DNA of 64,000 bases from a phage, in NCBI GenBank assembly GCA_012646185.1, contig GCA_012646185.1_4706.1; one strand, given 5' to 3'. Below the pieces are notes generated by a model. That model did not search any database. It saw nothing but the letters and a program-made list of their open reading frames with translations, and was not told the DNA's origin. Below are positions 4,722-51,992 of the stretch, one piece after another (the stretch's first letter is position 1; every line of letters begins with the position of its first letter). Position numbers and translations under genes: made by a program.

Positions 4722-4760
4722 CACACACTCCTTTCAGAAAGTTGCTTAAGCAGATTAAAG

Positions 4761-6197: not shown

Positions 6198-6346
6198 CGT
6201 CAACCTCCATCTGATTGAAAACTATCACGCATAATGCATTTCCCTTTTCTTGTTCTTATCGAGCCGACAGCCGACGGTTTCAGCATCGTTCCTAGCGCGA
6301 GAACGACCTTACGTGTTGTCTATGCCTTATTCATCGCAGGCGTCTG

Positions 6347-6405
6347 TCACCTAGGTAATGTAAGCGTCAAATTTTTTCTATTCGCAACAATAAACGGCAT
6401 AGAAA
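6347..6405 (-). promoter_or_regulatory. conserved intergenic element, copy B (promoter or 5' leader candidate)
   Basis: Shares CACCTAGGTAATGTA...GCATAGAA core with copies at 12829..12888 and 51485..51545; lies between the hairpin after the 740-aa gene and the next minus-strand gene. Confidence 0.4.
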
Positions 6406-6435
6406 CCTCCCCCAACCCTTACGGGCTGAGGGAGG
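6406..6435. terminator. GC-rich hairpin downstream of 6535..8757 (intrinsic terminator candidate)
   Basis: CCTCCC...GGGAGG outer stem with inner CCC/GGG stem and 4-nt loop; member of the recurring intergenic hairpin family. Confidence 0.55.
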
Positions 6436-6534
6436 CTGACTTATGTATCACGGTGCCGGATGAATGTCCGGTGCAATGAAACCATCCGCAACGTTGTCGT
6501 CAAGAATATCGTCCAACGAAGCAGCTACGGTAGT

Positions 6535-8757
6535 TCAGTTAGTCTGAACCGGCAGCTTGATGTTTTCAGTGTAGACCTTACGCAGGTTCACAACGTTAAT
6601 CAGACCCAGCAGCGGGCAGTTGTTAACGAAGCGGCAGCGCGGCTGAACCATGGTTTCTTTAGAAACCTGACCGTTACGGGTAACCTGAGCAACAGATACC
6701 AGTTCCGGTACATACAGGAACATACCGAAGGTCAGCGGATCCGGAGAACCCTGGATACCACGAGACAGGGTCACGAAGATCTTATCGCGCAGCATGACGT
6801 TCGGGTTATCTACAACCACGAAGTTGAAGCTTACACCAACGGTACGGAAATCGCCATCGGTCTGCAGGAACTGCGGGATGTAGTTGTCAGTTGCTACTAC
6901 GCAACGCGGTTTCTCATCAGCGTTGGAAGACAGCAGCTGCAGAGCTGGCTGATAACCAGACTCGGAGTACATGCGGTATGCCATCTCACGAATCACGTTC
7001 ATGATCGCAGCAGACACTTCAGCACGACGTTCTGCAGTGGTGGTACCCTGAACAGATTTCTCCAGGTCCAGATTGATTTCTTCGAACCACGGACGGATCA
7101 GGTAACGACCGAAACCTTCGATCTGGATGTCGCCGAACTGACGGAAGCGAGAGGTCGCAACCGCTTTCAGTGCGTCTTTGTAGCTGAACAGTTTCTCAAC
7201 CATCAGGTTGTCGAAACGTGCGTTAGCAGCTTGGATCAGAACGTCCAGGTCAGCAGCGTTTTCTTCCCAATCCAGCGGACGAGGAATGGAGAACGGAGCC
7301 AGCAGGCCGATTGCGTAACGTTCTTGCTTCATGTTGAAGTCAAGGTGCTTACCGCGCTCACGACGGTTGCTGTTGTTACGGCGGATACGCAGTTCGTAAC
7401 CAACCAGTTTGAAGCTCAGGTCTTCAGCCAGCTGTTTGAACTCTTCGCCCTTACGCGGTTGTTCGATGTTGTCACGATCGACCAGACGATACAGTTCAGC
7501 GTTAGCGCCGTTAACACGCAGACCGGCTTTCTCTACGTTGGAAGAACCGTAAACTTCGATTGCCAGCTGAGCAGCGGATTTCGAATCGATGATGTCCTGC
7601 AGCGCTTCAGCTCGTGCACCTTTAACGTCAACGGTGTTCTCATCAACGAAGATGGAGTGGGTGTCGAACGCCAGGGTCATTTTGCGGAAGTCGCCTTCCA
7701 GGGATTTCTGGAAACCGTTGGTGATCAGACCAGATACGTCGAACGGTACGTAAGAGGTTTTGCTGTGCTTGGTAGATTTGATTTCCACCAGGATTTTGGT
7801 CAGCGTGATCTGGGCGTCCAGCGCGTCGGTGTTGTCGCTGTAACCGTTAGCCAGGATGCTATCGTCTTCAGCGATACCGATCATGTCGATCAGTTTATCA
7901 ACAGCCAGGTAAGACGTTTTATAAGTTACGCCTTTAATTTCGATGTCGCGCGGAGCAACGATAGCTTTGTCAACGAAGTACTGTGCGTTAGCATCGTCAG
8001 CACGATAGATCGGATGCAGATCGGTCACGTCGTTGGACAGAACGTCGTTGTACATGAACGCATCCAGCAGCGGACGACGTACCCAATCAGCCGGAGTACC
8101 GTCAGCGTTACGACGCAGGTGGTTGAACACCAGCGGACGACGGAAAGATACGTCGTAACCGATCTGGTTCGGAGCCAGAACGATGGTGTTGTACAGTTCG
8201 TTACCCATGCGGCTCAGACGAGAAGCCTTCACGTTGAACACAACGGAGTACGGCATCATGTCACGCAGTTCTTTCTGGTCGTAGGACAGCTGAACCAGTT
8301 CTTCAGATTCGCAACCGCAGGAATCAGCAGCCATCATGACGAAGTTAGAGCTGTCAACTTCACGGCCAGACGGAGTGGTGCTGATGTTCATGGAACGTGC
8401 TTGTTTAGCATATTCCACCGGGTTACCATGAGCCAGCATGATCAGTGCTGCTGCACGAGCCTGCTGTGCGTTCATGGTGAACAGCTGTTCTTCAATACGC
8501 TGCTTCTCTTCCGGAGTGGTGGTTTCGAAGCCCAGCATGGACAGAACCGGTTCTTCGGCTTTACGGATGTCGCTGCTGAAGCTCTTAACATCCATTTCGT
8601 TAACCAGTTTGTCCATGGATTTGAAATCAACCTTAGAAGCAGATTCCATAGACAGGAAGGTGTTCTCCAGACCTTTGTCTGCTGGTTTGCTACCATTAGC
8701 GGTCAGGAACTGGCGAGTGGCCGCGACCTGTTGGCTAAGAAGGGTTTTATCATTCAT
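6535..8757 (-). CDS. major virion structural protein, tentatively major capsid protein (740 aa)
   Basis: Strongest codon bias in the window (its antisense strand is stop-free for about 2.3 kb, ORF 6460..8760); AAAGGA 8 nt upstream of ATG; followed by hairpin; size fits jumbo-phage capsid proteins but no motif confirms the fold, and a tail sheath protein is an alternative. Confidence 0.45.
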   Translation of the reverse strand: MNDKTLLSQQVAATRQFLTANGSKPADKGLENTFLSMESASKVDFKSMDKLVNEMDVKSFSSDIRKAEEPVLSMLGFETTTPEEKQRIEEQLFTMNAQQARAAALIMLAHGNPVEYAKQARSMNISTTPSGREVDSSNFVMMAADSCGCESEELVQLSYDQKELRDMMPYSVVFNVKASRLSRMGNELYNTIVLAPNQIGYDVSFRRPLVFNHLRRNADGTPADWVRRPLLDAFMYNDVLSNDVTDLHPIYRADDANAQYFVDKAIVAPRDIEIKGVTYKTSYLAVDKLIDMIGIAEDDSILANGYSDNTDALDAQITLTKILVEIKSTKHSKTSYVPFDVSGLITNGFQKSLEGDFRKMTLAFDTHSIFVDENTVDVKGARAEALQDIIDSKSAAQLAIEVYGSSNVEKAGLRVNGANAELYRLVDRDNIEQPRKGEEFKQLAEDLSFKLVGYELRIRRNNSNRRERGKHLDFNMKQERYAIGLLAPFSIPRPLDWEENAADLDVLIQAANARFDNLMVEKLFSYKDALKAVATSRFRQFGDIQIEGFGRYLIRPWFEEINLDLEKSVQGTTTAERRAEVSAAIMNVIREMAYRMYSESGYQPALQLLSSNADEKPRCVVATDNYIPQFLQTDGDFRTVGVSFNFVVVDNPNVMLRDKIFVTLSRGIQGSPDPLTFGMFLYVPELVSVAQVTRNGQVSKETMVQPRCRFVNNCPLLGLINVVNLRKVYTENIKLPVQTN

Positions 8758-8906: not shown

Positions 8907-9527
8907 TCACAAACGACGCAGGCGATAATGGATGGAACGATTGGTGCAATATGAACGGAACAGCGGCAATTGCGCAACTTCCGCAAGACTCATATTAATT
9001 CGCAGGTGTTCAATAACGGCGCTGTAGTTATCAGCAATACGATCGCTCAATAACTCTTCTGCCAATAAAGGAAGACAATCGACAACAATCGCGATCACAT
9101 CCTCATTAACATAACGCACCCGAACACTCAGCGGACGTTTGTCTGGGCTGTAAGTTGGATCCGCCAAACGACGTTCAATATCACGCGGATAGCTCGTCAG
9201 TAAATGGTAATAACCATTGTCATAACGATTGATGTACTCACACAGCACATCAACATTCTTCTCTGGCGGCAAACCTGTTTCGTCATAGTGATACGCAAAC
9301 ATACCACCAAGCAGGTTGTTAAGATGAACCGCAGGGTTCGCTTGTTCGTGTTCTTTCGTGATGAAGAAAGGCACGTTCTGGGCTGCGAAATAAAAACCTA
9401 CATCATTGGGCGATAGTATGCCGAAAAGACTTTTAGGGTCTAATAACACCTGTAAGTCATCACGCGCATTTCGAATAATCGCGTGTTCTACCCAATTCGG
9501 AACGACGAGATATCGGAGTTCCTTCAT
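8907..9527 (-). CDS. hypothetical protein (206 aa)
   Basis: ORF with AAGAGGTAA upstream of ATG at 9525-9527; divergent from 9567..11177. Confidence 0.7.
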   Translation of the reverse strand: MKELRYLVVPNWVEHAIIRNARDDLQVLLDPKSLFGILSPNDVGFYFAAQNVPFFITKEHEQANPAVHLNNLLGGMFAYHYDETGLPPEKNVDVLCEYINRYDNGYYHLLTSYPRDIERRLADPTYSPDKRPLSVRVRYVNEDVIAIVVDCLPLLAEELLSDRIADNYSAVIEHLRINMSLAEVAQLPLFRSYCTNRSIHYRLRRL

Positions 9528-9566
9528 TATGATTACCTCTTTGCAAGTATCGAAAGGATTGAGTCG

Positions 9567-11177
9567 ATGGACCCAAAACAGATAGCCATTAAGATTATTA
9601 CGTTACTGTTTCGTAATGCACAATTGAACCATCCCGATCCCAGTACGATCGAACATGTTAAATCCGTCTTAGATAAAGTCGAACCCCCGAAAAACCATCT
9701 CGCTACAGACGTAGATAGAGAGGTTTTCAACAACCTGATGAATACCATTCATTGGATGTTGGAACAACCATTATCGGAACCTTTCGATAAACAACAGTTG
9801 TTACAAAGGATACGTTTGGATTGCCTTGAACAAAGCAATCTTTACGAGATTCTTGCCGACGGACTGTACGATATCGAAGACGACGCTCATATCAGTAAGG
9901 TCTGTTCGCTCTATTACAATGAATTACGTAATCTGATTACCCGGCGTCGTGTTTTCGAAACCTTTAAAAACACGTACATGGATATCAGTAACGGGCGACT
10001 TGGGGATAAAGAATTTTTCGATGCGATGGCGAATCTGAAATTATCGCTAGACAGTATCGAAATGGATACCGAAAATCCCGAAGAGATGTCGTGTATGATT
10101 GACGGCTTTATCGCTGACAGCGAAGACGATATCGAGAAAGTTGAACGTATGTTCGTCAAAGCGATGGAACGTAACAGTCCTGAAGGTGGATTTGTAACCG
10201 GCTGGCAAGGCTTTAATAAAATGTTGGGGTCGGTCGGCGTTTTACGTCGCGGTACCTTAGGACTGATTGGTGCAATGCAGCACCGGAACAAGTCAGGCGT
10301 GTTGTTAAAACTGTTCACACATCTGGCATTGTACAACAAACCCCATTTCTTTTTCCCAGAGCGAGCAAAGAAAGCATTACTGATTCATTTGTCGACAGAA
10401 AACGAAGTGGAAGAAAACACGCTTCAGATATACAAGAACATGCGAGAACAGGAAACGGGCGAATATGTCGATATTCGTAAGATTGACCCTCGCGAGGCAT
10501 CACGTTATGTGTTGAAGGTGTTCAACGATGCGGGTTTCTCTGTTTGTATGCGTCGTGTTGATGGGATGAGTTATAAACAACTCGCTAATCTCATCGACCA
10601 TTTCGAACGCATGGGTTATGAAGTCATGGCGTTGTTCATTGACTATCTGAAAATGTTCTCATCGGAAGGGTTGGATAGAAATGGACCGACCGGCGCATGG
10701 CTCCAAGAACTCTTCAACAAAGTCCGTAACCTCTGCAGCGTTAAACGTATTTTAGGTATGACGGTACACCAGCTGTCATCCGATGCGAAGATGCGTGCGC
10801 GTGATGGTAACGATGAAGAGTTTGTTGACCAGGTCGCAGGTTTAAGTTACTGGGATGGTTGTAAAGGGATCGACCGTGAGATTGACCTTGAGGTGATTGT
10901 TGATATCGTTAAGGAGCCGGGCAAACGTCAAAGTTGGCAGGTCTTTGCGTTAGGGAAAGACCGTCAACCGGATAACGGTTCAACGAAACCTGAAGACAAA
11001 CATTTCGCGATGCCATTCCAAACCATCGGGATGCTTCCTGATGATTACGGTAAGAAAGCAGTATACTGCCGCAAGGTTGGCGGACAACCTGTCTCCGAGG
11101 GAGGTAAAGGTCCGTGGAACAAGTTCGATGAAAACGCAGCACCGAGTAATGAATTACAATTTGATTTAGAATTTTAA
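9567..11177 (+). CDS. hypothetical protein (about 536 aa)
   Basis: Long plus-strand ORF; start placed at ATG 9567 (AAGGA 8 nt upstream) rather than the GTG at 9483, which would overlap the divergent gene; no clear Walker or catalytic motif. Confidence 0.7.
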   Translation: MDPKQIAIKIITLLFRNAQLNHPDPSTIEHVKSVLDKVEPPKNHLATDVDREVFNNLMNTIHWMLEQPLSEPFDKQQLLQRIRLDCLEQSNLYEILADGLYDIEDDAHISKVCSLYYNELRNLITRRRVFETFKNTYMDISNGRLGDKEFFDAMANLKLSLDSIEMDTENPEEMSCMIDGFIADSEDDIEKVERMFVKAMERNSPEGGFVTGWQGFNKMLGSVGVLRRGTLGLIGAMQHRNKSGVLLKLFTHLALYNKPHFFFPERAKKALLIHLSTENEVEENTLQIYKNMREQETGEYVDIRKIDPREASRYVLKVFNDAGFSVCMRRVDGMSYKQLANLIDHFERMGYEVMALFIDYLKMFSSEGLDRNGPTGAWLQELFNKVRNLCSVKRILGMTVHQLSSDAKMRARDGNDEEFVDQVAGLSYWDGCKGIDREIDLEVIVDIVKEPGKRQSWQVFALGKDRQPDNGSTKPEDKHFAMPFQTIGMLPDDYGKKAVYCRKVGGQPVSEGGKGPWNKFDENAAPSNELQFDLEF

Positions 11178-42102: not shown

Positions 42103-43413
42103 TTACGCGACGACAGAGTCGAGTTTCGCTGACACTTTGAACAGATCGTTGTTCATTGTGGAAGAAAGGACTTGTTGAATTTCTTCCTGTTTAACGGCTT
42201 TACGAACCCCAGGACGAAGGATAAGCGTAACCATCTGTGAAAAGGTACGATTATTGTTCATCGCACTCAGCGTTTCATCGATTGTTTTGATGGTATCCAG
42301 CGTCATGGAACGAACATCGCTTGGGATATCACGATCTTTCAAGCGTATAATTAAATCTTGTTTGATTTTACGGAATCGTTCCATGTCGTTATCGTAAATG
42401 CTGTATGTTGGATCTAACCAAACAGAAAGCGCGGTTACGGCCACAACAACCAACACACCGATAGCGCCAACAGAAGCTAAACCTATCGCCATCATAGAGG
42501 CTATAGTAGCATCCATGATGAAGGAGAGCCAGAACATCGTTTTGGACTTCATGGAGTTGGTGCCATAAAGCCGATACATTTTAGCAAGCCCGCTAACGAG
42601 ATACTCCCCACTACCGTGACGCGTAGCGAACTGATCAGCCATGAATTCGGAAGCAACGTCAGTGTATCGACCAGCATTGTTTACATTTCGTAACTGCATT
42701 GCTCTGTTAGACACGTAAACCGTGTACCAGACACTACCATCGTCTGAATCACTGATTTTGTCTACGTCAACGTTGGTATCCAACGTTTTGTTTAACGCTT
42801 TCGCCAGTTCGATACGTTTTACCTTATCGGTTGTTCCCAACAGTTCACGCTGTACGGTCATGATCGAGGCTTCGACACGAACCGTTTCTGATAATGTTTC
42901 AAGGAAAGTAAATGCGTGCCCGATTTCATGCAGCATTATGGCTGCTTTTTCTTCCGGAAGAAAGGGTTCTGTCGCTGTTAGCAGTTCATACGTGATGGCA
43001 GAACGAATCTTCAACTCCTCAAAGATACCGTAAACACGACCTTTTTCTAAATCGACGTAACCGACAGGTGCATCTTTAATCTTCTTAAGGAGTGCGACAC
43101 CATCAGCACCACGCATCCATAACCGATGATAGTCCGCCAGGATCGTGTTGTTTGTCGAAATATCCGGTGGGTACACGTAGGCGTTCATCTGGCCCATTTT
43201 CATGTCGACCGAGAATTCGATGTTCAACCCCGTATAGCGTTTAACCATCTCGGTTAAACGACCGTCCTTGAAAACGTTTAAAACCTCTTTTTTATCCAGT
43301 CCCTGTTTGCTTCTGAAGAACTCGGTCATTTCCTTGAACAAGGAACCATCTTGAAACTTGATGGCTTCCATCGTTAATTCGTCATGACCATACACGCGTT
43401 GTAGTAATGACAT
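42103..43413 (-). CDS. putative membrane-associated zinc metallopeptidase (HExxH)
   Basis: Motif AAIMLHEIGHAFTFLETLSE (HExxH plus downstream Glu) followed by a hydrophobic segment about 40 residues long (MFWLSFIMDATIASMMAIGLASVGAIGVLVVVAVTALSVWL). Confidence 0.55.
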   Translation of the reverse strand: MSLLQRVYGHDELTMEAIKFQDGSLFKEMTEFFRSKQGLDKKEVLNVFKDGRLTEMVKRYTGLNIEFSVDMKMGQMNAYVYPPDISTNNTILADYHRLWMRGADGVALLKKIKDAPVGYVDLEKGRVYGIFEELKIRSAITYELLTATEPFLPEEKAAIMLHEIGHAFTFLETLSETVRVEASIMTVQRELLGTTDKVKRIELAKALNKTLDTNVDVDKISDSDDGSVWYTVYVSNRAMQLRNVNNAGRYTDVASEFMADQFATRHGSGEYLVSGLAKMYRLYGTNSMKSKTMFWLSFIMDATIASMMAIGLASVGAIGVLVVVAVTALSVWLDPTYSIYDNDMERFRKIKQDLIIRLKDRDIPSDVRSMTLDTIKTIDETLSAMNNNRTFSQMVTLILRPGVRKAVKQEEIQQVLSSTMNNDLFKVSAKLDSVVA

Positions 43414-43634
43414 TGTACACTCTCTAAATTTACGTAAATTTAAGGGCTAATGGATCGGCTGGCCGCACCAATCACAATGTGTCCGCTGCTATGCAACGGC
43501 ATTCATAGAAATACCTTTTGACGGTAACATCACCCATCACACCCCAAGCAATAAGAGTGGTCGGTTAAAAACAACAGAACGTGGGGATGATATAGAAAAT
43601 CACCTTTTAACACTTATTACGAGTTTATCAAGCC
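43414..43634. promoter_or_regulatory. divergent intergenic region (strand switch, candidate promoters)
   Basis: 220-bp ORF-free spacer between the divergent starts of 42103..43413 and 43635..45134. Confidence 0.4.
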
Positions 43635-45134
43635 ATGAGCGAACAAGAACGAAAACCTAAGAAGAAACTGCTCGGTATTCAATGTCGACACATCAGCTAT
43701 AACGAAGCGAACGACGGCAGCAAGAACGACCTCATGATCGCAAAAGAGATCATGTTCTTTGATGACAATACGCAAGCGACGAACCTTCGCTTCTTTGAGA
43801 ATTACAAACGTCCGTTTTGGGTGACGGTAGAGAGTAAACGTAAGAACAAATATAAAAAGGAAAGCGAGAAGCTCTCGCATGTGCGTCGCTATGATGTCCG
43901 CCAAAGTGAACTGGTTGAAAAGATCAGTTCGGTGCTTTATAAAAGACGTGCTGACGATAACACCCGTTTACAGCAGCTTGCACGGAGTCCATACCTCTAC
44001 GGCACGGACGTTAGCGCCAGCTGTTATTTAAAAACCCAGTACAACACAAAATGGCCGGAATACGTCGATAAATTACCCGCTTCCATTGCCTGTTTCGATA
44101 TCGAAACCGACGTTGTCCATGGACATGGTAAGATCGTTTGTATGTCTATTACAATGGGATACAATGCGATACTTTGCTATACCAAGGACTTCGTTGGTCA
44201 TATTCCGAATGCGATTGAGAAAACCCATGAGAAGATTCGATATTACCTGGCCGAACGTCTGAATACCAAAGAAGATCCTCATGCGTTCGAAAAATATCAG
44301 TACGATGTGCGAATCGTAGAAAGTCCGGCACAAGCAGTCATCCAATGCATGCAGAAGGTTCACGAATGGCAGCCGGATTATCTCCTTGGCTGGAATATCG
44401 CGTTCGATATTCCGCGCATGCTCCAGGCACTGAACGAGGAAGGGTATCGTCCCGAGGATGTTTTCTCCGATCCTCGTGTACCCCCTAAGTATCGTATTGC
44501 TCGCTGGGTACCACCGAAGACCGACAAGGTATCTGCTTCAGGCCGTAAAACCAACCTTACCCTCGAGCAGACCTGGCCGATGTTTTATACGATGGCTACG
44601 TATCAGGTTATGGATGCGATGTGTGGTTATAAGTTCGTTCGTTTAGGAAGACCGGATGAGGGACGCTATTCACTCGATGCGGTGTTAGAGCGTAATAAAT
44701 GCCATACGAAATTAAAAGCGATTCCTGGTACAGAAGGGTTCACGGAGCTCGCCTGGCACGAAGAGATGCAAACGAACCATCAAATCGACTACGGCGTATA
44801 TAACCTTTGGGATAACCAAGGTATTGAGGCGTTGGACCAGAAAACAAAAGACTATTCGATGACCATCCCGATTCGTTTAGCGGCGTCGGATTTGAAAGAT
44901 TTCAGTTCCAACCCTAAACGTATCTGCGATAAACTTTTCTTCGTGTATCTTAACCGTGGGGAAGTCATGGGATGCACCGCCGACGACATGACCCAGGAAG
45001 AAGATAAGTGGGTTATCTCACGAACCGGACATATCGTCACATTACCATGCGATCTCATGGCGGACAACGGCATTCATCTCTTCTGGGATATGCCTAATTT
45101 AAGGAGCTATATTCGATTATTTGTTGCGGATTAA
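43635..45134 (+). CDS. DEDDy 3'-5' exonuclease domain protein, family B DNA polymerase N-terminal-like
   Basis: Exo I ACFDIETD, Exo II LLGWNIAFDIPRML, Exo III GRYSLDAV in canonical order and spacing; no polymerase palm motifs seen downstream. Confidence 0.65.
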   Translation: MSEQERKPKKKLLGIQCRHISYNEANDGSKNDLMIAKEIMFFDDNTQATNLRFFENYKRPFWVTVESKRKNKYKKESEKLSHVRRYDVRQSELVEKISSVLYKRRADDNTRLQQLARSPYLYGTDVSASCYLKTQYNTKWPEYVDKLPASIACFDIETDVVHGHGKIVCMSITMGYNAILCYTKDFVGHIPNAIEKTHEKIRYYLAERLNTKEDPHAFEKYQYDVRIVESPAQAVIQCMQKVHEWQPDYLLGWNIAFDIPRMLQALNEEGYRPEDVFSDPRVPPKYRIARWVPPKTDKVSASGRKTNLTLEQTWPMFYTMATYQVMDAMCGYKFVRLGRPDEGRYSLDAVLERNKCHTKLKAIPGTEGFTELAWHEEMQTNHQIDYGVYNLWDNQGIEALDQKTKDYSMTIPIRLAASDLKDFSSNPKRICDKLFFVYLNRGEVMGCTADDMTQEEDKWVISRTGHIVTLPCDLMADNGIHLFWDMPNLRSYIRLFVAD

Positions 45135-45165
45135 CCTTCGTTCTGTAAAAACTTACCGATATATA

Positions 45166-45211
45166 GAAATTACTGTGAGATACCAAAGGTACTCGTAAGT
45201 TTAGTAATTTC
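45166..45211 (+). other. hairpin (9-bp stem GAAATTACT/AGTAATTTC, 28-nt loop) between exonuclease gene and HNH gene
   Basis: Read directly from sequence; could be a terminator or part of an intron 5' structure. Confidence 0.4.
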
Positions 45212-45227
45212 TGAGCGGTAGGTAAAT

Positions 45228-46364
45228 ATGTTGGAACATCTTGAACATTTAGACAATGAATACTTAAATTTCACCAATCGTCGTTATCGTATCTTCGAAG
45301 ACGGTACACTTTACGATTACAAAGAGAATTGTAAAGTACCTGTTATAATAGAAGATAACAACTCTTACGTTATTATCGATTGGTATCGTGGGGTTGGTAA
45401 ATACGAATTGGGGATGATCATGCTTACAGCATTTGATCGCATCCACATTCCTAACTATCTTTACGATGAAATTGAATCGTTGTTTATTGATAACGACCCG
45501 ACGAACTTTTCGTATAGTAACCACATCTATCGTTTCCGTAATGGACCGCTGGCTGTGGAAGGGTATCCGGGATATTACTACATCCCGTTTGCCACGTACT
45601 ATGCGCTAAATGAACAAGGTGAATGTTTAAGTCTTTTGTCTGGGGAAGGTATAACGTGGACAATGACGCAGCAAAACGGTACGCGGCGTCCCGGCTATCG
45701 ATACAGAAAGGTAACACCTGATAGCGGTTTTACGGCTCAGCTGTATCGTCATCGAGCGATGATGTTGACGTTTCGTCGTTACGACGCAAGCGTTGTGGAA
45801 ATGACCGTTAATCACAAGAACGGTATTAAAGGCGATGATTGGCTGGATAACCTGGAATGGGCAACCTACAAGGAAAACAACAATCATGCGCGTATAAACG
45901 GTTTATGTGACGGCAAAGCGAAACCTATCAAGATCTTTGATTATAATCGTCATACCGAACGTCATTTCAAGAGCATCGCTGAGGCGGAACGTGCGTATCC
46001 ACACGTAGCAAAAGGACGTTTCAAATGGTGGGTTGAAAATCCACCGAAACGTATACCTGAATGTAACCTCTACATCAAACATGCGTTCGATAATACTCCG
46101 TGGCCTGAATGGAAACTGGGTGATGAACGACGTATTGAAGATGTAGCGGGTATTCCGATTATCGCCCTTAACATGGTTACAGGCGAGAAACGAGTGTATT
46201 CATCGGTTACAGCTGCGGGTAAGGATACGAAAACAAGTTGGATAACAGTACGACGTCACTGTGATAAGCGTGTCGTTCCTGTTAAACAAGCATGGTGTTT
46301 CCGTTATGCTGACGACGTCAAAAACATGCCTGAGTTAACTTCCCTACCAACAATCGAACAGTAA
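45228..46364 (+). CDS. HNH homing endonuclease
   Basis: HNH signature TVNHKNGIKGDDWLDNLEWATYKENNNHA; C-terminal repeated DNA-binding-like modules (SIAEAERAYPHVAKGRFKWW, SVTAAGKDTKTSWITVRR); gene visibly more AT-rich than its surroundings. Confidence 0.85.
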   Translation: MLEHLEHLDNEYLNFTNRRYRIFEDGTLYDYKENCKVPVIIEDNNSYVIIDWYRGVGKYELGMIMLTAFDRIHIPNYLYDEIESLFIDNDPTNFSYSNHIYRFRNGPLAVEGYPGYYYIPFATYYALNEQGECLSLLSGEGITWTMTQQNGTRRPGYRYRKVTPDSGFTAQLYRHRAMMLTFRRYDASVVEMTVNHKNGIKGDDWLDNLEWATYKENNNHARINGLCDGKAKPIKIFDYNRHTERHFKSIAEAERAYPHVAKGRFKWWVENPPKRIPECNLYIKHAFDNTPWPEWKLGDERRIEDVAGIPIIALNMVTGEKRVYSSVTAAGKDTKTSWITVRRHCDKRVVPVKQAWCFRYADDVKNMPELTSLPTIEQ

Positions 46365-46875
46365 CGATAACAGGTCCCCCTACTTGTAATGAGTGGGTGA
46401 ACTCTCTTTAATTGCTGGAAACCTTTAATGCCCCTCCACACCACAACGCAATCCGAAAGGGTAAACGTGATGGTTGTCGAAAGACAGAAAAAAGTTGGAG
46501 GGGATTACCTAAGCTGAAATAAAAGCCGTTACTTTCTGGATATGGAAAGAGTCTAACGGTGCTAAGGGTCCTGCTAGAAATAAGGTAACCGTAGCAGCGA
46601 AGACCCTACGGACTGTCGTGACCGACTCGATGAGTTGGCGTGGTTAACACGGACAGGCTACGGGTAACGTTCAACGACCATCCGGTTGCGCGGAGTAGGA
46701 GAATTAGGATGTTCTCCGAAAAGGGAGAAGTCGGTCGAGGTGTTGTAGAAACACCGTTGCTTTGCTTCGCAAACATAAGACAGGCTAAGATATGGTCTAT
46801 ATTAAATGTAATACTATGATGTATAGAATTTAATGGCTCGATATTAGCAGTTCATATCCAAATGGGCAGATCCTG
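46365..46875 (+). ncRNA. structured non-coding region with group I intron catalytic-core-like elements
   Basis: About 510 nt without a credible ORF; R-like GTTCAACGACCA (46669..46680) and S-like AAGATATGGTC (46788..46798) with complementary GACCAT/ATGGTC halves (P7-like); several local hairpins and a long-range CCCCTCCA/TGGAGGGG complement. Confidence 0.35.
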
Positions 46876-47091
46876 TTGAATCTATCCAGAGCATGTGTTT
46901 TTCGTGAGCTCTCACGCATTGAGGGCGTCTCTGACTACCAATTCAGGAAGCTAGGTATCAACTTTATTACCGGAGGTAAAACGAACGCTGTAGACTTCTG
47001 TAGAATCGTTTATAAAGCACCATCGATGTTTGAGCTCTTAGAACATTTCGATGCGACGCGTCCAAAAGAGGAAGCGCGGACCATCGAATGA
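46876..47091 (+). CDS. doubtful small ORF (71 aa, TTG start); possible 3' exon or spurious
   Basis: Frame open from 46834; no SD; no recognisable motif. Confidence 0.2.
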   Translation: MNLSRACVFRELSRIEGVSDYQFRKLGINFITGGKTNAVDFCRIVYKAPSMFELLEHFDATRPKEEARTIE

Positions 47092-47141
47092 TTCAAGTAG
47101 GTTGATCCTCGTTTAACAAAAAAGAAAACACATGCGAAGCT

Positions 47142-47169
47142 CCTCCCCCTGGCGGAAGCCGGAGGGAGG
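47142..47169. terminator. hairpin with GGAA tetraloop
   Basis: CCTCCCCCTGGC-GGAA-GCCGGAGGGAGG, 11 of 12 pairs; downstream of 47178..47663. Confidence 0.6.
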
Positions 47170-47177
47170 GGTGAGGT

Positions 47178-47663
47178 TTATGCGCGTTCGTTACCAACCG
47201 TTACTTTGTAGTCAGCGTCGGTTAAGAATATAGACAGGAATCCATGTTCTTTGCAAATCTGACTAAGGATGTCAGCAATGATTTCGTTGATCATCGGCTT
47301 GTTTGCAAGGGCATAGATGTACCCGGGTGTAAAAGAAAGTGCGTGATTGATCATAGGCTCATGAGAAGCCAAGATAAGGATCACGTGATGCTTCCCATCG
47401 TCGGTAACGACCGCTTGCGTAGACACGAAGAAATCAGTGAAGCAGCAGCGATCACAGGCTTTAGGTATATACAAGTCACCCAGAGCTTCGTTACGTGCTT
47501 TTACGTGTGTTTCAGGGGTGATGCTGCTAAGTTGATCTTCAGCGAGATCCAAGACATCCTCAATCGTTTTAAGAATAGCGTTGCGGAAATCCTCACGGTA
47601 GAATGGGATGATATCACGATCGTTCATGTAATCGCCGGATTCGATAGTAAAGTTGATGTTCAT
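47178..47663 (-). CDS. small hypothetical protein (161 aa), accessory island
   Basis: ORF with AGGAG 6 nt upstream. Confidence 0.7.
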   Translation of the reverse strand: MNINFTIESGDYMNDRDIIPFYREDFRNAILKTIEDVLDLAEDQLSSITPETHVKARNEALGDLYIPKACDRCCFTDFFVSTQAVVTDDGKHHVILILASHEPMINHALSFTPGYIYALANKPMINEIIADILSQICKEHGFLSIFLTDADYKVTVGNERA

Positions 47664-47773
47664 TGAATGCTCCTAGTGGTTATGTCGATTGATTGATGTA
47701 TTGATTTATGTTTGATGGGGTATACTTGAAACTACAAATAAGGCTCTTGGCGTTGCTGTTATGGTTCAGTTCT

Positions 47774-48226
47774 TTATCCCTTGTTGGATTCGTCAATATA
47801 CTTGGTGTCGTAAGACAAATGCTGAATTAATTTTCTAGGTCTGATGAATATACGACATGTGATAAACACATCAGGATTGTATTGTTCCACGCAACGTCCG
47901 AAGGCTCGTTTTGCGGCGTGACGCATCAACACTAATTCCCGATCGTTCATCTCATCATCAAATTCGATGTGTATCGTGATTTTATCGGGAAATAAATAGA
48001 TAGAGTAATCGCCACCAATACCGCCGTCGTCAAAACGATAATCGTTGTGGTAATGGTGAAGTTTACCTTCGTGTATCGTCTGGTACCACCCGACGTTACT
48101 ATCAAGGCCCATACCCAGGCGTCCGAATGCCTGATTAATAATATCTTCGACGACGGATGCGGGTGTGGGGCCATTGAACAATCTATCCAGACGTTTTTTC
48201 ATCGATTTGTCGTTTTTCATGTTCAT
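47774..48226 (-). CDS. small hypothetical protein (150 aa), accessory island
   Basis: ORF between hairpin 48255..48290 and the 47664..47773 spacer. Confidence 0.65.
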   Translation of the reverse strand: MNMKNDKSMKKRLDRLFNGPTPASVVEDIINQAFGRLGMGLDSNVGWYQTIHEGKLHHYHNDYRFDDGGIGGDYSIYLFPDKITIHIEFDDEMNDRELVLMRHAAKRAFGRCVEQYNPDVFITCRIFIRPRKLIQHLSYDTKYIDESNKG

Positions 48227-48254
48227 TGTTTCTTTTCCTGTGTAGTCGGTATAC

Positions 48255-48290
48255 AGCCCTTCCCCGGCCTTGGTGGCTAGGGAAGGGGCT
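48255..48290. terminator. GC-rich hairpin
   Basis: AGCCCTTCCCC...GGGAAGGGGCT. Confidence 0.5.
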
Positions 48291-48301
48291 ATGCTACGTT
48301 G

Positions 48302-48700
48302 TTATGCTTCGCAATCAGCTGAAGGCGTCGCGCCTTTCTTACCGGCGATACGCCAAATCCGACACGCTGGGTAATGGTTAACCTCTAGAGAGCAAGGAAT
48401 GTTATATTTCTCTTCCAGCGCATAAAGACATTTCGTTAGCTGCTCCAGCGCGTTCTCGTCGTGTCGTAACGCGTGGTGGCCTAATCGATGTTGGTCGTTC
48501 TTTATATACGCCTCGAAGAGAACATGTTGGCGATGTACGCTGACGTTTACAGCCTCGAGTATAGCTTGGTCGAGCATACGACTAAAGCACATCAACGAGT
48601 CAGATACGTTTTCTCGCTTAACCAGATCGATCATGGCGGGAATATACGAATGGTCGATGTTATCGATGACCGCTTTAGCGACGGAATCAGCAACGTTCAT
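48302..48700 (-). CDS. small hypothetical protein (132 aa), tandem paralog of 48736..49131
   Basis: Shared blocks VKAV.DNIDH...MID..K.E, EKYNIP.SLEVN..PA with its neighbour. Confidence 0.7.
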   Translation of the reverse strand: MNVADSVAKAVIDNIDHSYIPAMIDLVKRENVSDSLMCFSRMLDQAILEAVNVSVHRQHVLFEAYIKNDQHRLGHHALRHDENALEQLTKCLYALEEKYNIPCSLEVNHYPACRIWRIAGKKGATPSADCEA

Positions 48701-48735
48701 CTTTTAATCCCTAGTTTGTTATTGATCACGTATAT

Positions 48736-49131
48736 TTACTCTTTGACGTCAGTTGTCGTTTCGACATGCTTCTCACTACTGACGTACCAGAGCAGGTACG
48801 CTGGGAAAAGATTGACCTCTAAGCTAAATGGGATATTGTATTTCTCTTCCATTTTACAGAGATGTTCTTTAAGTAAATTTCTCGCGTCTCTGTCACCACG
48901 AACAGAGTGCCAGTCTAGTTCTTTGTTCTCCTTTACCAGGACCTCTACGATGATACGTTGCTCGTGAACCTCGGTTTTCACAGTGAAAAGTAAATCGCTG
49001 CTATCAAAACGGGTAAAACGAATGTATGAACCAGGTGTTTTTTCTTGTTTAATAATATCGATCATGGTAGAAATGCGCGGATGATCGATGTTGTCGTTAA
49101 CAGCTTTAACGATGGATTCTACAATGCTCAT
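48736..49131 (-). CDS. small hypothetical protein (131 aa), tandem paralog of 48302..48700
   Basis: See paralog; ATGA overlap with the upstream micro-ORF. Confidence 0.7.
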   Translation of the reverse strand: MSIVESIVKAVNDNIDHPRISTMIDIIKQEKTPGSYIRFTRFDSSDLLFTVKTEVHEQRIIVEVLVKENKELDWHSVRGDRDARNLLKEHLCKMEEKYNIPFSLEVNLFPAYLLWYVSSEKHVETTTDVKE

Positions 49132-49226
49132 TTTTTATCCTTAATGTTATCGATATTGACGAGTTCATCAATACGGCACTGTTGGTTGAATTCGATTAAT
49201 CGTTGAACTTTATCTTTGATAGACAT
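49128..49226 (-). CDS. candidate micro-ORF (32 aa, MSIKDKVQRLIEFNQQCRIDELVNIDNIKDKK)
   Basis: Not in the ORF track (below 60 aa); starts 2 nt after the stop of 49229..49687 and ends in an ATGA overlap with 48736..49131. Confidence 0.3.
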   Translation of the reverse strand: MSIKDKVQRLIEFNQQCRIDELVNIDNIKDKK

Positions 49227-49228
49227 GA

Positions 49229-49687
49229 TTACCCATTAGCTCCTTCTTCGTCTGGAGAGTACTCCATTGTGTAGAATTCATAACCATCGGAAAACTTGAG
49301 TGTTAATGTAATAGGGAAATCGCACGGCGTAGCTGATTTCGTAAATGCGTTATTAGCAACATCTGCCAACCGACGTATAGCATCAGTCCCGCTGACGCTG
49401 AATGGTAGTTGTATGTTGATAAGGATACGATGCTTGTAAACATAGAAAACAACGGTACTGTCAAGATAGACGCTATGGAACGGTATTGTTGGGATGCGTT
49501 CCACGATGGTAAAATACGTCCCGTCATTATCGCTATGTCCCACCGACCAAATATCGGATTTGCGTAGATTTTGTTTGAGAGATTCGATGCTTCGAGTGAC
49601 GGTATCAGCAACAGGCGTGACGTAAGCGTCTTTATGCGAGTCGAAAAGTTCGTTGACGTTAGATTCGAATGAAAACGTTGTTGCCAT
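49229..49687 (-). CDS. small hypothetical protein (152 aa), paralog of 49753..50253
   Basis: C-terminal similarity ITLTLKFSDGYEFYTMEYSPDEE versus VILTINGHDGSGLFEFHYDPDNE. Confidence 0.7.
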   Translation of the reverse strand: MATTFSFESNVNELFDSHKDAYVTPVADTVTRSIESLKQNLRKSDIWSVGHSDNDGTYFTIVERIPTIPFHSVYLDSTVVFYVYKHRILINIQLPFSVSGTDAIRRLADVANNAFTKSATPCDFPITLTLKFSDGYEFYTMEYSPDEEGANG

Positions 49688-49752
49688 TTTCTACCTCAAT
49701 GGTTTAACCGATACGTGCCCCACCTAACAAGGGACACGTTATCGTTGATTAA

Positions 49753-50253
49753 TTACTCTTCTGTGTTTTCATTGTCGGGATCGTAGTGGAATTCGAACAG
49801 CCCTGAACCGTCGTGCCCGTTGATTGTTAGTATAACGGGCATATCGAATCCTCGGACACGCGAATGAAAACACTGTGCTAATTTGAGTTTGGCGTATGCC
49901 GCTATTTCATTGACAGCAATACACGATTCACCTGTTATACTCAGTATAACGTCGATACTAACAATGTTGTCGTGCAACGCAAAACGCCAGCGATCGATAC
50001 GATTATTATCTTTATCGGTTGTCTCGTTTACGAGATAGACTTTATCGTCAACCGACAAAGCGGGACTCCAGCAACGATCGTTTATTAAATTCGCCTGGAG
50101 TTTTAGTATCGTCTGATCGATAATATCCCAACACGTAACCAGCGTGGTGTCAGGCACTGAGTAGAGAAGGGCGTGCACTTTATCCTTTATTTTAAGTGCT
50201 TCCGCAGGACGTCCGCAAATACCATGCATTTCAACTTTCTTATTCATATTCAC
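49753..50253 (-). CDS. small hypothetical protein (166 aa), paralog of 49229..49687
   Basis: See paralog. Confidence 0.7.
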   Translation of the reverse strand: MNMNKKVEMHGICGRPAEALKIKDKVHALLYSVPDTTLVTCWDIIDQTILKLQANLINDRCWSPALSVDDKVYLVNETTDKDNNRIDRWRFALHDNIVSIDVILSITGESCIAVNEIAAYAKLKLAQCFHSRVRGFDMPVILTINGHDGSGLFEFHYDPDNENTEE

Positions 50254-50290
50254 TTCTTTCTTAATCTAAATGTTAGTTGGGGTGGAATGC

Positions 50291-50923
50291 TTACATGCTT
50301 TCTAACATATCGATGATCATGGAACCCATACCGAAACTCGGTCTTTCACCGATGTACTCAGCAAGCTGGCGATGGACGTCTTTTGGATTTCCTTCTTCAC
50401 CATCGGCATCGATGTAGACCGAAAAAGAAAATGAATCGGAATCCACGCTGATAACCAGACGACGTTCATTGCGTTCCTTGAGCGTGTCGACGATAGCTGC
50501 TTTCAGTACTGCGATCGCGTTCATCGCGTGCAAGATATCTCCATCGGGTTTCGGCAGATCGATCTTTTCTTTCAGGTCGATATTGATGTTGGTTACAATT
50601 GGGTTGAGGTCGACCTTGACGTAATCGTTAGGGTACATGCGAATAATCGCACGATCGATATCTGAACCGTAAAAGTCAACACGTGGCTTTAACACTTCTT
50701 TGTTTGGATCCATGTTTTCATCCATACCCGCCTGCAAGAAACGTTCTACGTTATCCAGTTCACGATAAACTGACGCTTCGATTTCTTTCAGATAGTTGGC
50801 TGCGGTTTCATGTTCTTTACGCAGCTCGTCTTTAAGGAGCTGTACGGTGACTTCACTGGAACGAATGCTGTTCGCGAATTGGGTAATTGACATATCGAAT
50901 TCCTTAAATTCTCTTGAGTTCAA
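50291..50923 (-). CDS. hypothetical protein (210 aa)
   Basis: ORF; no motif. Confidence 0.7.
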   Translation of the reverse strand: MNSREFKEFDMSITQFANSIRSSEVTVQLLKDELRKEHETAANYLKEIEASVYRELDNVERFLQAGMDENMDPNKEVLKPRVDFYGSDIDRAIIRMYPNDYVKVDLNPIVTNINIDLKEKIDLPKPDGDILHAMNAIAVLKAAIVDTLKERNERRLVISVDSDSFSFSVYIDADGEEGNPKDVHRQLAEYIGERPSFGMGSMIIDMLESM

Positions 50924-50991
50924 TTAATGATGAAAAGCTGTAAAAAAAGGTGGGGCGAACCCCACCAAAACGTCAGACACACGCAGGAAAA

Positions 50992-51417
50992 TTAATTCAG
51001 TGACGCATATAACGCATAACGACTGTAGATCTCAACCGCCGGTCCGTTATGCGTTAACAGACCATCCCGGTTGTAATACTGGAAAAATGAATAACGTTTG
51101 TCGAAGTGATAAACAAAAGCAATGTCTTTGCTGCCAAGACCTGTGATGCGTGGTCTGTTTTTATCTAACAGCGCTTTGACTTTTAACAGTGTTGCCGCAC
51201 GTGCTTTAACGTTAGGGATTAATCCATCACAATCGATATAAACTGTGTAACCTGTTTCAGATGTTGCGACGGTCGTATTGCGATTGACGCGGAAGATTTT
51301 TGTTTCGTATGTACTATCTTCAAGAATTGGGTTTTGTTTTTCGTATTTTCGTTTACGCAGAAATTCTACAACGGTGATATAGTTAGCGGTAATATGCCCG
51401 GTTATAGCTTGTAACAT
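50992..51417 (-). CDS. hypothetical protein (141 aa)
   Basis: ORF preceded by conserved element copy C. Confidence 0.7.
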   Translation of the reverse strand: MLQAITGHITANYITVVEFLRKRKYEKQNPILEDSTYETKIFRVNRNTTVATSETGYTVYIDCDGLIPNVKARAATLLKVKALLDKNRPRITGLGSKDIAFVYHFDKRYSFFQYYNRDGLLTHNGPAVEIYSRYALYASLN

Positions 51418-51484
51418 CTTGACATCCTTTTATATTGGATTGGTTGCAATTGTCTTAAATAGATGATAAGATATTTTGCTCTTA

Positions 51485-51545
51485 TCACTAAGGTAATGTA
51501 GTCGTGAAATAAACTGCGTTAACACGAAATAAAAACAGCATAGAA
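51485..51545 (-). promoter_or_regulatory. conserved intergenic element, copy C (promoter or 5' leader candidate)
   Basis: TCACTAAGGTAATGTAGTCGTGAAATAAACTG...ACAGCATAGAA; a 1-nt indel relative to copy A breaks any shared reading frame. Confidence 0.45.
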
Positions 51546-51585
51546 CCCTCCTCCCACATCCTTCAAGAGGACGGTGGGAAGAGGG
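51546..51585. terminator. long GC-rich hairpin
   Basis: CCCTCCTCCCAC...GTGGGAAGAGGG, 11 of 12 pairs, plus an inner stem. Confidence 0.55.
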
Positions 51586-51590
51586 AGAGA

Positions 51591-51992
51591 TTAAATGTCG
51601 TGGACGGCAATGCCGTTTAACCAGCAATACAGCTTAACGCGACAGGAATACCGCTTCGTTGCGGCAACCATTTCATCGCGTAAACGCTGGTAGATTTCAT
51701 CCTGGTGTTCACGATCAATGGGGTAATCAGCCCAACATTCGATCATGACGTCACCATTCGTCAGAATCGTCGTACGCATCCTGTCCTGGATACGGCGGTC
51801 TTTCCCGGCATTAGGGAAATACATTCCTTCAGTACGAATAAGGTCGCCGCAGGGCATGACTAACCATTCGTTCGTTTTGCCGGTATTCTTATAATCCATT
51901 ACGGCTTGCATTGCGGTGTCAACGCTAAAAGAAACATAATTCCAAACGGATGTCCAACGATAGATTGCGGGTTGTTCGAGTGTTTCGTTCAT
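51591..51992 (-). CDS. hypothetical protein (133 aa)
   Basis: ORF. Confidence 0.7.
   Translation of the reverse strand: MNETLEQPAIYRWTSVWNYVSFSVDTAMQAVMDYKNTGKTNEWLVMPCGDLIRTEGMYFPNAGKDRRIQDRMRTTILTNGDVMIECWADYPIDREHQDEIYQRLRDEMVAATKRYSCRVKLYCWLNGIAVHDI

Follow-up and report, generated by a model that had tools for sequence, protein, structure and literature searches.

A stretch of phage DNA of 64,000 nucleotides (nt) (GenBank assembly GCA_012646185.1, contig GCA_012646185.1_4706.1), the whole of which is called the window here, contains on its plus strand a 499-codon open reading frame (ORF) that a first-pass annotation, made from the letters alone, had read as a family B-type proofreading exonuclease domain without a polymerase domain. 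We are highly confident that 43635-47091 (+) is a single gene, interrupted by an intron, whose product is the N-terminal subunit of the split replicative polymerase (family B) of phiKZ-like phages. The ORF spans 43635-45134 with its stop included; that apparent stop, TAA, is the opening triplet of a group I intron and 84 further codons follow at 46837-47091, so the gene does not end at about 500 amino acids (aa) as had been supposed. The features on which the argument turns are the following.

43635-45131, plus strand: exon 1, 499 codons, N-terminal and 3'-5' exonuclease domain of a family B DNA polymerase (from the ORF list, PHROG 3011 and fold)
45132-46836, plus strand: group I intron, 1,705 nt, starting UAA and ending ...AAUGG with terminal G46836 (Rfam RF00028)
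45228-46364, plus strand: HNH and NUMOD1 homing endonuclease gene, 378 aa, inside the intron between the candidate P1 and the ribozyme core
46837-47091, plus strand: exon 2, 84 codons plus TGA, LDISSSYPNGQILLNLSR...TIE and stop, with the motif A catalytic Asp and Tyr-Pro followed by a helical C-terminal tail
45129-45131 and 46837-46860, plus strand: codons of motif A, D499 / L500-D501-I-S-S-S-Y506-P507, split by the intron (from conservation and profile alignment)

By nucleotide match the window corresponds to approximately 36-100 kilobases (kb) of the 237-kb genome of Escherichia phage vB_EcoM_Goslar, which has 95% nt identity to window 43000-47200 across 71% of the length of that region; no other cultured phage was found to match window 43000-47200 at a Goslar-like level. 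Judged by this match, the source is a close relative of the nucleus-forming, phiKZ-like E. coli jumbo phage Goslar.

The product of the 499-codon ORF is 99.8% identical to Goslar gp068, which is likewise 499 aa long and is annotated 'DNA polymerase'. It matched PHROG 3011 ('DNA polymerase') with an E value of 2e-150 over profile positions 5-494 of 576, an end point that suggested that about 80 residues are absent from the ORF. Profile search and structure prediction both bore out the earlier assignment to a family B-type exonuclease. The AlphaFold2 model of the exonuclease subunit had a predicted local distance difference test score (pLDDT) of 88 overall and >90 for residues 1-460, and its top structural match in Foldseek was RB69 gp43 (E = 6e-13). 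A profile of 95 homologues was required to find RB69 gp43 by sequence among PDB entries (E = 6.6e-6), since a phmmer search of the same sequences with the single 583-aa joined product described below returned nothing useful, and Pfam PF03104 (PolB exonuclease) scored 16.4 bits on the 499-aa ORF, under its cut-off of 23. The three exonuclease motifs lie in the order that had been noted, and their key residues D155, E157, N254, Y389 and D393 do not vary among 95 aligned full-length homologues, the set used for all statements on invariance in this subunit.

44094-44111, plus strand: Exo I, FDIETD, aa 154-159; D155 and E157 invariant; aligns to the RB69 Exo I region
44394-44420, plus strand: Exo II, NIAFDIPRM, aa 254-262; N254 invariant, D258 at least 90% conserved; aligns to RB69 'WNVESFDIPYV'
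44790-44813, plus strand: Exo III, YGVYNLWD, aa 386-393; Y389 and D393 invariant; aligns to RB69 'YISYNIIDV'

The 499-aa ORF is the N-terminal/exonuclease module of a family B DNA polymerase. A stand-alone DEDD (DnaQ-like) exonuclease was also considered, and does not fit the invariant motif A or the N-terminal domain of the RB69 gp43 type.

Exon 2 alone matched PHROG 3011 at positions 495-571 of 576 (E = 6e-19), continuing the exon 1 match exactly, and its translation lines up with the C-terminal ends of the RP12, phiKZ, RAY and Vibrio phage homologues. Uninterrupted relatives cross the junction (RP12, 627 aa; phiKZ gp082, 638 aa; RAY gp285, 573 aa) and read ...DLD(I/V)xxxYPN...NISKETT... past the point at which the window ORF stops. 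Exon 1 terminates in ...LFVAD, with the last two codons GCG GAU and U as its last base, and joining it to exon 2 gives a 583-aa protein with the junction peptide LFVADLDISSSYPNGQILLNLSR. As read from the sequence, the joined exons restore an intact, conserved reading frame. The insertion point separates codon D499 from codon L500 and lies two codons ahead of the catalytic aspartate of motif A; the run LDISSSYPNG is encoded at 46837-46866 and with D499 gives D-L-D-I-S-S-S-Y-P, in which D499, D501, Y506 and P507 are invariant in all 95 homologues. Motif A is therefore divided by the intron after its first codon, and the statement that no DxxSLYPS occurs nearby was wrong, although the related claim, that the other palm and fingers motifs are missing, stood: a six-frame regular-expression search of the whole 64 kb found motifs B and C in no long ORF of any frame.

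The predicted spliced product, searched against 5.8 billion proteins, matched P0001, a 583-aa protein from a 237-kb ENA contig. The protein search reported 100% identity over 100% of the length, and comparison via the DNA gave two differences, L147I and H198R (99.7%). At its locus (L008) the gene is an uninterrupted 1,752 nt, base-for-base colinear with exon 1 plus exon 2 and free of gaps. An intron-less allele therefore exists in a near-identical phage, the join is seamless, and exon continuity is established. The target at the intron site reads ...GTTGCAGAC / CTTGACATTAGC... in this allele. The window exons differ from it at 66 nt, 64 of them in codons whose amino acid is unchanged, and 16 of the 66 sit in 61 nt around the junction where 2.3 would be expected (P ~ 7e-10). 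Such clustering is the pattern expected from co-conversion of the flanking exon or from divergence of the endonuclease target site.

These data bear on the suggestion that the ORF encodes a stand-alone proofreading exonuclease, in which case the gene would end at codon 499, the HNH gene would be free-standing and the 84 codons would be a decaying remnant. The ORF does have its own stop, at which the Goslar annotation also ends gp068, and in one review these phages are said to have a stand-alone exonuclease. A decaying remnant, however, would not be expected to be intact, ordered and as highly conserved as exon 2 is, with four invariant family residues counted on its side, nor to encode exactly the same amino acids in the window and in Goslar despite the synonymous recoding of 10 consecutive nt. 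The two parts are separated exactly by a complete group I core, every full-length homologue runs 75-130 aa further, and the joined product carries motif A. We regard a stand-alone exonuclease as highly unlikely.

The intron ends were placed by comparing the window with uninterrupted homologues and the intron-less allele, to which its exons are colinear. A cmscan alignment placed the full Rfam RF00028 (Intron_gpI) model, positions 1-253, at 46326-46817 with 42.5 bits and an E value of ~7e-9. The curated gathering score of this family is 50 bits, and because the intron scores below it, a default Rfam scan at the gathering threshold missed it; it was found by E-value mode on the local region only. 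Real phage introns in which an endonuclease ORF displaces the 5' part are thus lost at the Rfam gathering threshold. The landmarks of the intron are as follows.

45128-45147, plus strand: candidate P1 of 4 base pairs (bp), exon GGAU / intron UAACCUUC-GUUC, with a guide-sequence candidate GUUC at 45140-45143 (pairing search)
45165-45212, plus strand: perfect 10-bp hairpin AGAAAUUACU...AGUAAUUUCU, just 5' of the ribosome binding site and ATG of the endonuclease (read from the sequence)
46365-46836, plus strand: ribozyme core, 3' part of the intron (cmscan alignment landmarks, which also give the six lines below)
46379-46397, plus strand: P2-like hairpin
46400-46423, plus strand: P3/P4 5' strands
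46582-46598, plus strand: P5/P4 3' strands
46669-46679, plus strand: J6/7-P7, GUUCAACGACC
46720-46731, plus strand: P3 3' strand
46784-46799, plus strand: J8/7-P7, GCUAAGAUAUGGUCUA, with P9 and the 3' end after it

P4-P6, P8 and P9 are also recognizable, and in P7 the covariance-model alignment shows a C-G pair in place of the consensus U-A, a compensatory change. The minimum free energy of the folded core had a z score of -2.4 and was better than that of 99 of 100 shuffled sequences. A final U in exon 1 and a final G in the intron are shared by all six loci at which the junction was mapped (the window, Goslar, L009, L011, L012 and L014; the numbered loci are described below). The intron core is established. 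The 10-bp hairpin, which the Goslar variant lacks in such form, might control translation of the endonuclease or belong to P2.

An intein, or programmed recoding, would be another way of carrying an insert at this position, and in archaea the motifs of family B polymerases are well known as sites of inteins. The insert opens with an in-frame TAA, however, and another stop follows in the same frame ahead of the ATG of the endonuclease; the Pfam scan gave no match to an intein (Hint-type) domain, and the insert matches an RNA covariance model. The likelihood of either device in place of an RNA intron is vanishingly small.

The homing endonuclease that had been noticed next to the ORF was confirmed, with Pfam matches to HNH_3 (25.7 bits, cut-off 24.8) and NUMOD1 (32.9 bits, cut-off 22.8) and a match to PHROG 59, 'HNH endonuclease' (E = 4e-17). 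Its similarity to I-HmuI (PDB 1u3e) is marginal (E = 0.05), and it shares 68% aa identity with Goslar gp069. The predicted enzyme presumably nicks or cuts intron-less alleles in co-infecting relatives.

Goslar has the same intron at the same site, AD/LD in the notation used below for insertion sites, and its core, at 44.7 bits, has ~99% nt identity to that of the window. The 3' ends of the two introns differ, and the Goslar junction carries the variant ATATCTTCAAGC. The aa sequence of exon 2 is the same in both, with the I-S-S-S codons at its start reading ATT AGC AGT TCA in the window and ATA TCT TCA AGC in Goslar; the 10 recoded nt fall within window 46843-46854 and Goslar L001 9901-9912, and here the intron-less allele agrees with the window and not with Goslar. 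This recoding, together with the different intron 3' end and the diverged endonuclease, may mark two endonuclease specificities or two donors. The Goslar RefSeq record has two Intron_gpI features (169269-169645 and 211817-212245), both in RNA polymerase genes, and none at the DNA polymerase gene. Could the interruption be an assembly or sequencing artifact, a foreign segment inserted into a contiguous gene? The sole point in favor is that a contiguous allele exists. Goslar was sequenced independently and has the same architecture, with a near-identical core beside an endonuclease of only 68% aa identity, and the gene is interrupted in the same manner at eight further loci, which come from different samples; an artifact is therefore extremely unlikely.

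In order to see how commonly the gene is interrupted, the best 120 clusters of environmental homologues were surveyed. Full-length sequences make up 97 of these and extend 75-130 aa beyond the stop point of the window ORF; 19 end inside motif A (with ...AD as the last residues in nine, ...ADLD in seven and ...ADLDVxx in three), and the remaining four end at a conserved W-IVTLP, ~33 codons upstream of motif A. DNA was examined for eight interrupted clusters, six of which have sequence downstream of the stop, and a group I intron directly follows the stop in all six, as it also does in phage PhiPA3. The recurrence of introns at the same site is established. The introns found in relatives are listed below by locus, insertion site and RF00028 score.

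L014, site AD/LD: ORF-less intron, 372 nt, 79.7 bits
L012, inside the Tyr codon of YP: 71.6 bits
L009, site ADLD/I: ORF-less intron, 27.0 bits
L011, site AD/LD: 29.3 bits
L010 (Logan SRR29149956 contig), intron core directly after exon 1: 37.9 bits
L019, first intron, site W/IVTLP: 79 bits, with a 429-aa HNH ORF inside
L019, second intron, site AD/LD: 65.9 bits
PhiPA3 gp085 (L018, NC_028999, reverse complement of 71386-80188), intron at 5304-5647, site ADLD/I: ORF-less, 344 nt, 71.7 bits

The introns of L014, L012 and PhiPA3 and both introns of L019 score above the Rfam cut-off of 50, and those of L010, L011 and L009 score below it. At L019 (ENA ERZ926646 contig, 4870-7030) one gene holds two introns, the first after ...HANW, followed by a 32-codon mini-exon, VTLPSYMAAPNGLTCIKEYPDYKTLLFGHVAD. 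At L010 (5470-7340) an antisense HNH gene (6081-7043) follows the core and then comes an exon-2-like frame, YTEIFANISRKTT, which seems two residues short and lacks the conserved Pro; this locus possibly contains two introns or a degenerate copy. The ORF-less introns measure 344-421 nt and sit at AD/LD in L014 and 6 nt downstream, at ADLD/I, in L009 and PhiPA3. In PhiPA3 the annotated 'DNA polymerase' gp085 ends with ...HVADLD and a stop at the unannotated intron, and exon 2 (IVSTYPNVSQILNIARETTVMEFS...) starts at 5648, so that the annotated protein is short of 75-80 residues at its C-terminus. Among the sampled matches of a tblastn search (296 matching cultured-phage records), truncation was seen only in Goslar and PhiPA3. 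As mapped on these sequences, there are at least four insertion sites around motif A, three of them within 19 nt and one 33 codons upstream.

The ORF-less introns also bear on the view that insertion of the endonuclease broke the gene and that no splicing occurs, the 499-aa product and a product of ~71 aa starting at TTG 46876 reassembling non-covalently. An ORF with this TTG start exists at 46876-47091, and homing endonucleases can fragment phage genes that remain functional. A start at 46876, however, loses L500-L513 and with them the invariant D501, Y506 and P507; a full-length group I core lies between the pieces, bounded by its U and G exactly at a codon boundary; and the motif A introns of L014, L009 and PhiPA3 have no ORF, therefore no endonuclease could have caused the break there. 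We consider a gene in unspliced pieces very unlikely. The suggestion that the adjacent endonuclease had contributed to the gene break did not hold up either, since the endonuclease rides in the intron and yields only an apparent truncation at codon 499, and the split between exonuclease and polymerase is found throughout the family. Comparison of gene architecture with relatives thus upheld the part of the earlier expectation that concerned the split polymerase, but the exonuclease gene of the relatives continues past codon 499.

The alternative that the polymerase is encoded in separate modules proved correct. The partner is Goslar gp244 (174314-176467), which matches Pfam PF20286, 'Divergent Family B DNA polymerase' (divDNApol), with an E value of 2e-204 as well as PHROG 2927 and is encoded ~95 kb from gp068. 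The separate palm-domain ORF that had been proposed for a search was thus found in Goslar; a tblastn search with Goslar gp244 found no counterpart in the 64-kb window, and the partner in the window's own phage is assumed because of the 95% identity to Goslar. The gp244 model had a pLDDT of 89, with RB69 and T4 gp43 as its best structural matches. Across 40 polymerase-subunit sequences, motif B (Q148, K152, N156, G160), motif C (S404-D405-T406-D407-S408) and the KxY motif are invariant, and there is no invariant acidic residue upstream of motif B. The distribution of the motifs over two proteins is established.

Two other candidates for the missing polymerase parts were rejected. One was a 599-codon ORF with a GTG start at 2925-4724 on the minus strand, which corresponds to Goslar gp039 ('polymerase') and matches PHROG 2943; it matched PDB 7ogp chain E (PHIKZ123; E = 1e-40), which we regard as one of the subunits of the non-virion RNA polymerase of phiKZ, and would therefore be an RNA polymerase subunit and not part of a DNA polymerase. 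The other, RKLGINFITGG in exon 2, was weighed as a possible degenerate motif B and dropped because the divDNApol subunit invariably has the canonical QxxxKxxxNSLSG, which aligns to RB69 K560/N564.

In the PDB sequence search the exonuclease-subunit profile aligned to RB69 gp43 in three colinear stretches reaching residue 430. In the third of these, 'rahvaDlDvsstYPnaeivlniskett' aligned to RB69 404-430, placing D501 at D411, Y506 at the steric-gate Y416 and P507 at P417. The polymerase-subunit profile aligned from RB69 residue 435 onward, through R482/K486, motif B and the KKRY region. Since one profile extends to about residue 430 and the other begins at about 435, the ancestral polymerase would have been cut just after motif A, and a composite active site is therefore to be expected. 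By this alignment, the polymerase active site is probably built from both proteins. Residues 496-512, the motif A segment, had a pLDDT <50 and are the least confident part of the monomer model, which fits a strand that would fold only against the partner.

The steps that we propose are as follows. A guanosine would attack after U45131, the exons would be ligated after the terminal G46836, and the intron would in this way excise itself. The resulting mRNA would be translated into a 583-aa protein in which the N-terminal domain and the proofreading exonuclease are followed by the first strand of the palm, bearing motif A (D501, Y506), and by a short helical tail. This subunit would assemble with the separate divDNApol subunit, to which the fingers (bearing motif B), motif C (SDTDS), the KxY motif and the thumb belong. 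The endonuclease would nick or cut an intron-less allele, and repair would copy the intron together with adjacent exon sequence.

Several points weigh against the intron-split gene and the two-protein active site. The intron scores 42.5 bits where Rfam gathers at 50, its P1 is only a 4-bp candidate (GGAU/GUUC) from a pairing search, and the same kind of search at the intron gave no convincing P10, only short candidates; splicing is inferred from the sequence alone, as are the activity and target of the endonuclease and the physical assembly of the two subunits. The third profile stretch, that of motif A, is weak taken by itself (independent E value ~8e2) and draws its support from colinearity only. 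In the literature the motif A aspartate has been placed on the polymerase protein, as D229 of phage EL (PMC3201878), and the exonuclease of phiKZ-like phages has been described as a stand-alone protein (PMC7824862). Our reading of a composite site therefore contradicts published assignments, its basis being conservation and profile alignment only.

Group I introns in phage DNA polymerase genes are known from SPO1/SP82, Bastille and Pf-WMP3, whose host genes encode family A polymerases. The intron in the window, unlike these, sits in a family B polymerase gene, that for the N-terminal subunit of the split enzyme. In SPO1/SP82 (I-HmuI, I-HmuII), Bastille (I-BasI) and Pf-WMP3 (I-PfoP3I, PMC3428280) a self-splicing group I intron with an HNH/NUMOD-like endonuclease likewise interrupts a conserved catalytic region of an essential DNA polymerase gene, and the SPO1-type introns resemble the window and Goslar pair in having similar ribozyme cores beside far more diverged endonuclease ORFs. 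The endonuclease ORF of the window differs from the SPO1-type introns in lying between the candidate P1 and the core and, as noted above, in its marginal similarity to I-HmuI. The subgroup IA introns of T4 td, nrdB and nrdD (sunY) share with the window intron an in-frame stop at the start, a short P1 (a 4-bp candidate in the window) and, by the covariance-model alignment, extra elements between P7 and the P3 3' strand, but differ in endonuclease family (HNH in the window) and in ORF position.

Within the same phage family, PhiPA3 gp210 is an HNH endonuclease carried by an intron in a virion RNA polymerase subunit gene and serves as a weapon against relatives (Birkholz et al. 2024, PMC11620839). 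That intron and the two Goslar RNA polymerase introns resemble the present one in interrupting the gene of an essential polymerase beside its catalytic aspartates; the host gene in the window, however, encodes a DNA polymerase and not an RNA polymerase. That phiKZ-like phages encode exonuclease and polymerase separately has been on record since 2011-2012 (PMC3201878; PMC5694885 citing Cornelissen 2012), and SPN3US gp18 and gp44 have been called a 'split subunit DNA polymerase' (PMC5105663, PMC5694885). The phiKZ-type split polymerase comprises the same two families as here, PHROG 3011 and PF20286/PHROG 2927, with the genes far apart. In contrast to the published descriptions, in which the exonuclease stands alone or both catalytic aspartates belong to the polymerase protein, the break is placed here just after motif A (RB69 ~430/435), which puts the motif A Asp and the steric-gate Tyr on the exonuclease subunit.

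HNH-bearing group I introns in phage DNA polymerase genes, RNA polymerase introns in this family and the split polymerase are thus already known. In the accessible literature we found no DNA polymerase intron mentioned for Goslar, PhiPA3 or other chimalliviruses, which is not proof of novelty. As far as that literature shows, the DNA polymerase intron in Goslar-like phages and PhiPA3 with the truncated annotations that result from it appears to be new, as do the cluster formed around motif A by at least four insertion sites and the location of motif A on the exonuclease subunit.

Several features outside the polymerase gene were also observed. A strong inverted repeat separates the end of exon 2 from a convergent gene:

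47140-47171, no strand assigned: G+C-rich inverted repeat, between the end of exon 2 and the gene at 47178-47663 on the minus strand (read from the sequence)

It is conserved in Goslar, where it carries no annotation, and in L008, and by its sequence and position it looks like a shared bidirectional terminator. A series of small minus-strand genes of 130-210 aa each occupies 47178-51992; their Goslar equivalents are gp070-gp076, all hypothetical there, and the run includes at least two clear paralogues (48302-48700 and 48736-49131), both with the N-terminus M..V.S..KAV.DNIDH.... The intron-less relative L008 differs in having another gene beside its polymerase gene. Elsewhere in the window, the gene for the major head protein (6535-8757, minus strand) adjoins that for a divergent DnaB-like replicative helicase (9483-11177, plus strand; Pfam PF20307, divDNAB, E = 2e-120).

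Goslar and PhiPA3 are main laboratory models for the phage nucleus, and their annotated gp068 and gp085 are truncated at an unrecognized intron and lack motif A. Anyone expressing, knocking down, tagging or modeling the annotated ORF would therefore be working with a dead fragment. A motif A carried by the exonuclease subunit would change the description of the split enzyme and offers a target for mutagenesis and structural work. More tentatively, one may picture for the replicative polymerase of nucleus-forming jumbo phages a catalytic center formed by two proteins, with the motif A Asp and steric-gate Tyr on the exonuclease subunit and motifs B and C on divDNApol, whose motif A coding sequence would be a recurrent landing pad for introns, with at least four sites, and whose fast-diverging HNH endonucleases may be weapons against co-infecting relatives, as in the case of PhiPA3 gp210. 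With motif A as an intron hot spot, alleles with and without the intron in nearly identical phages, and two variants of the endonuclease in genomes that are otherwise 95% identical, this locus would offer a natural system for the study of intron-mediated competition at a DNA polymerase gene.

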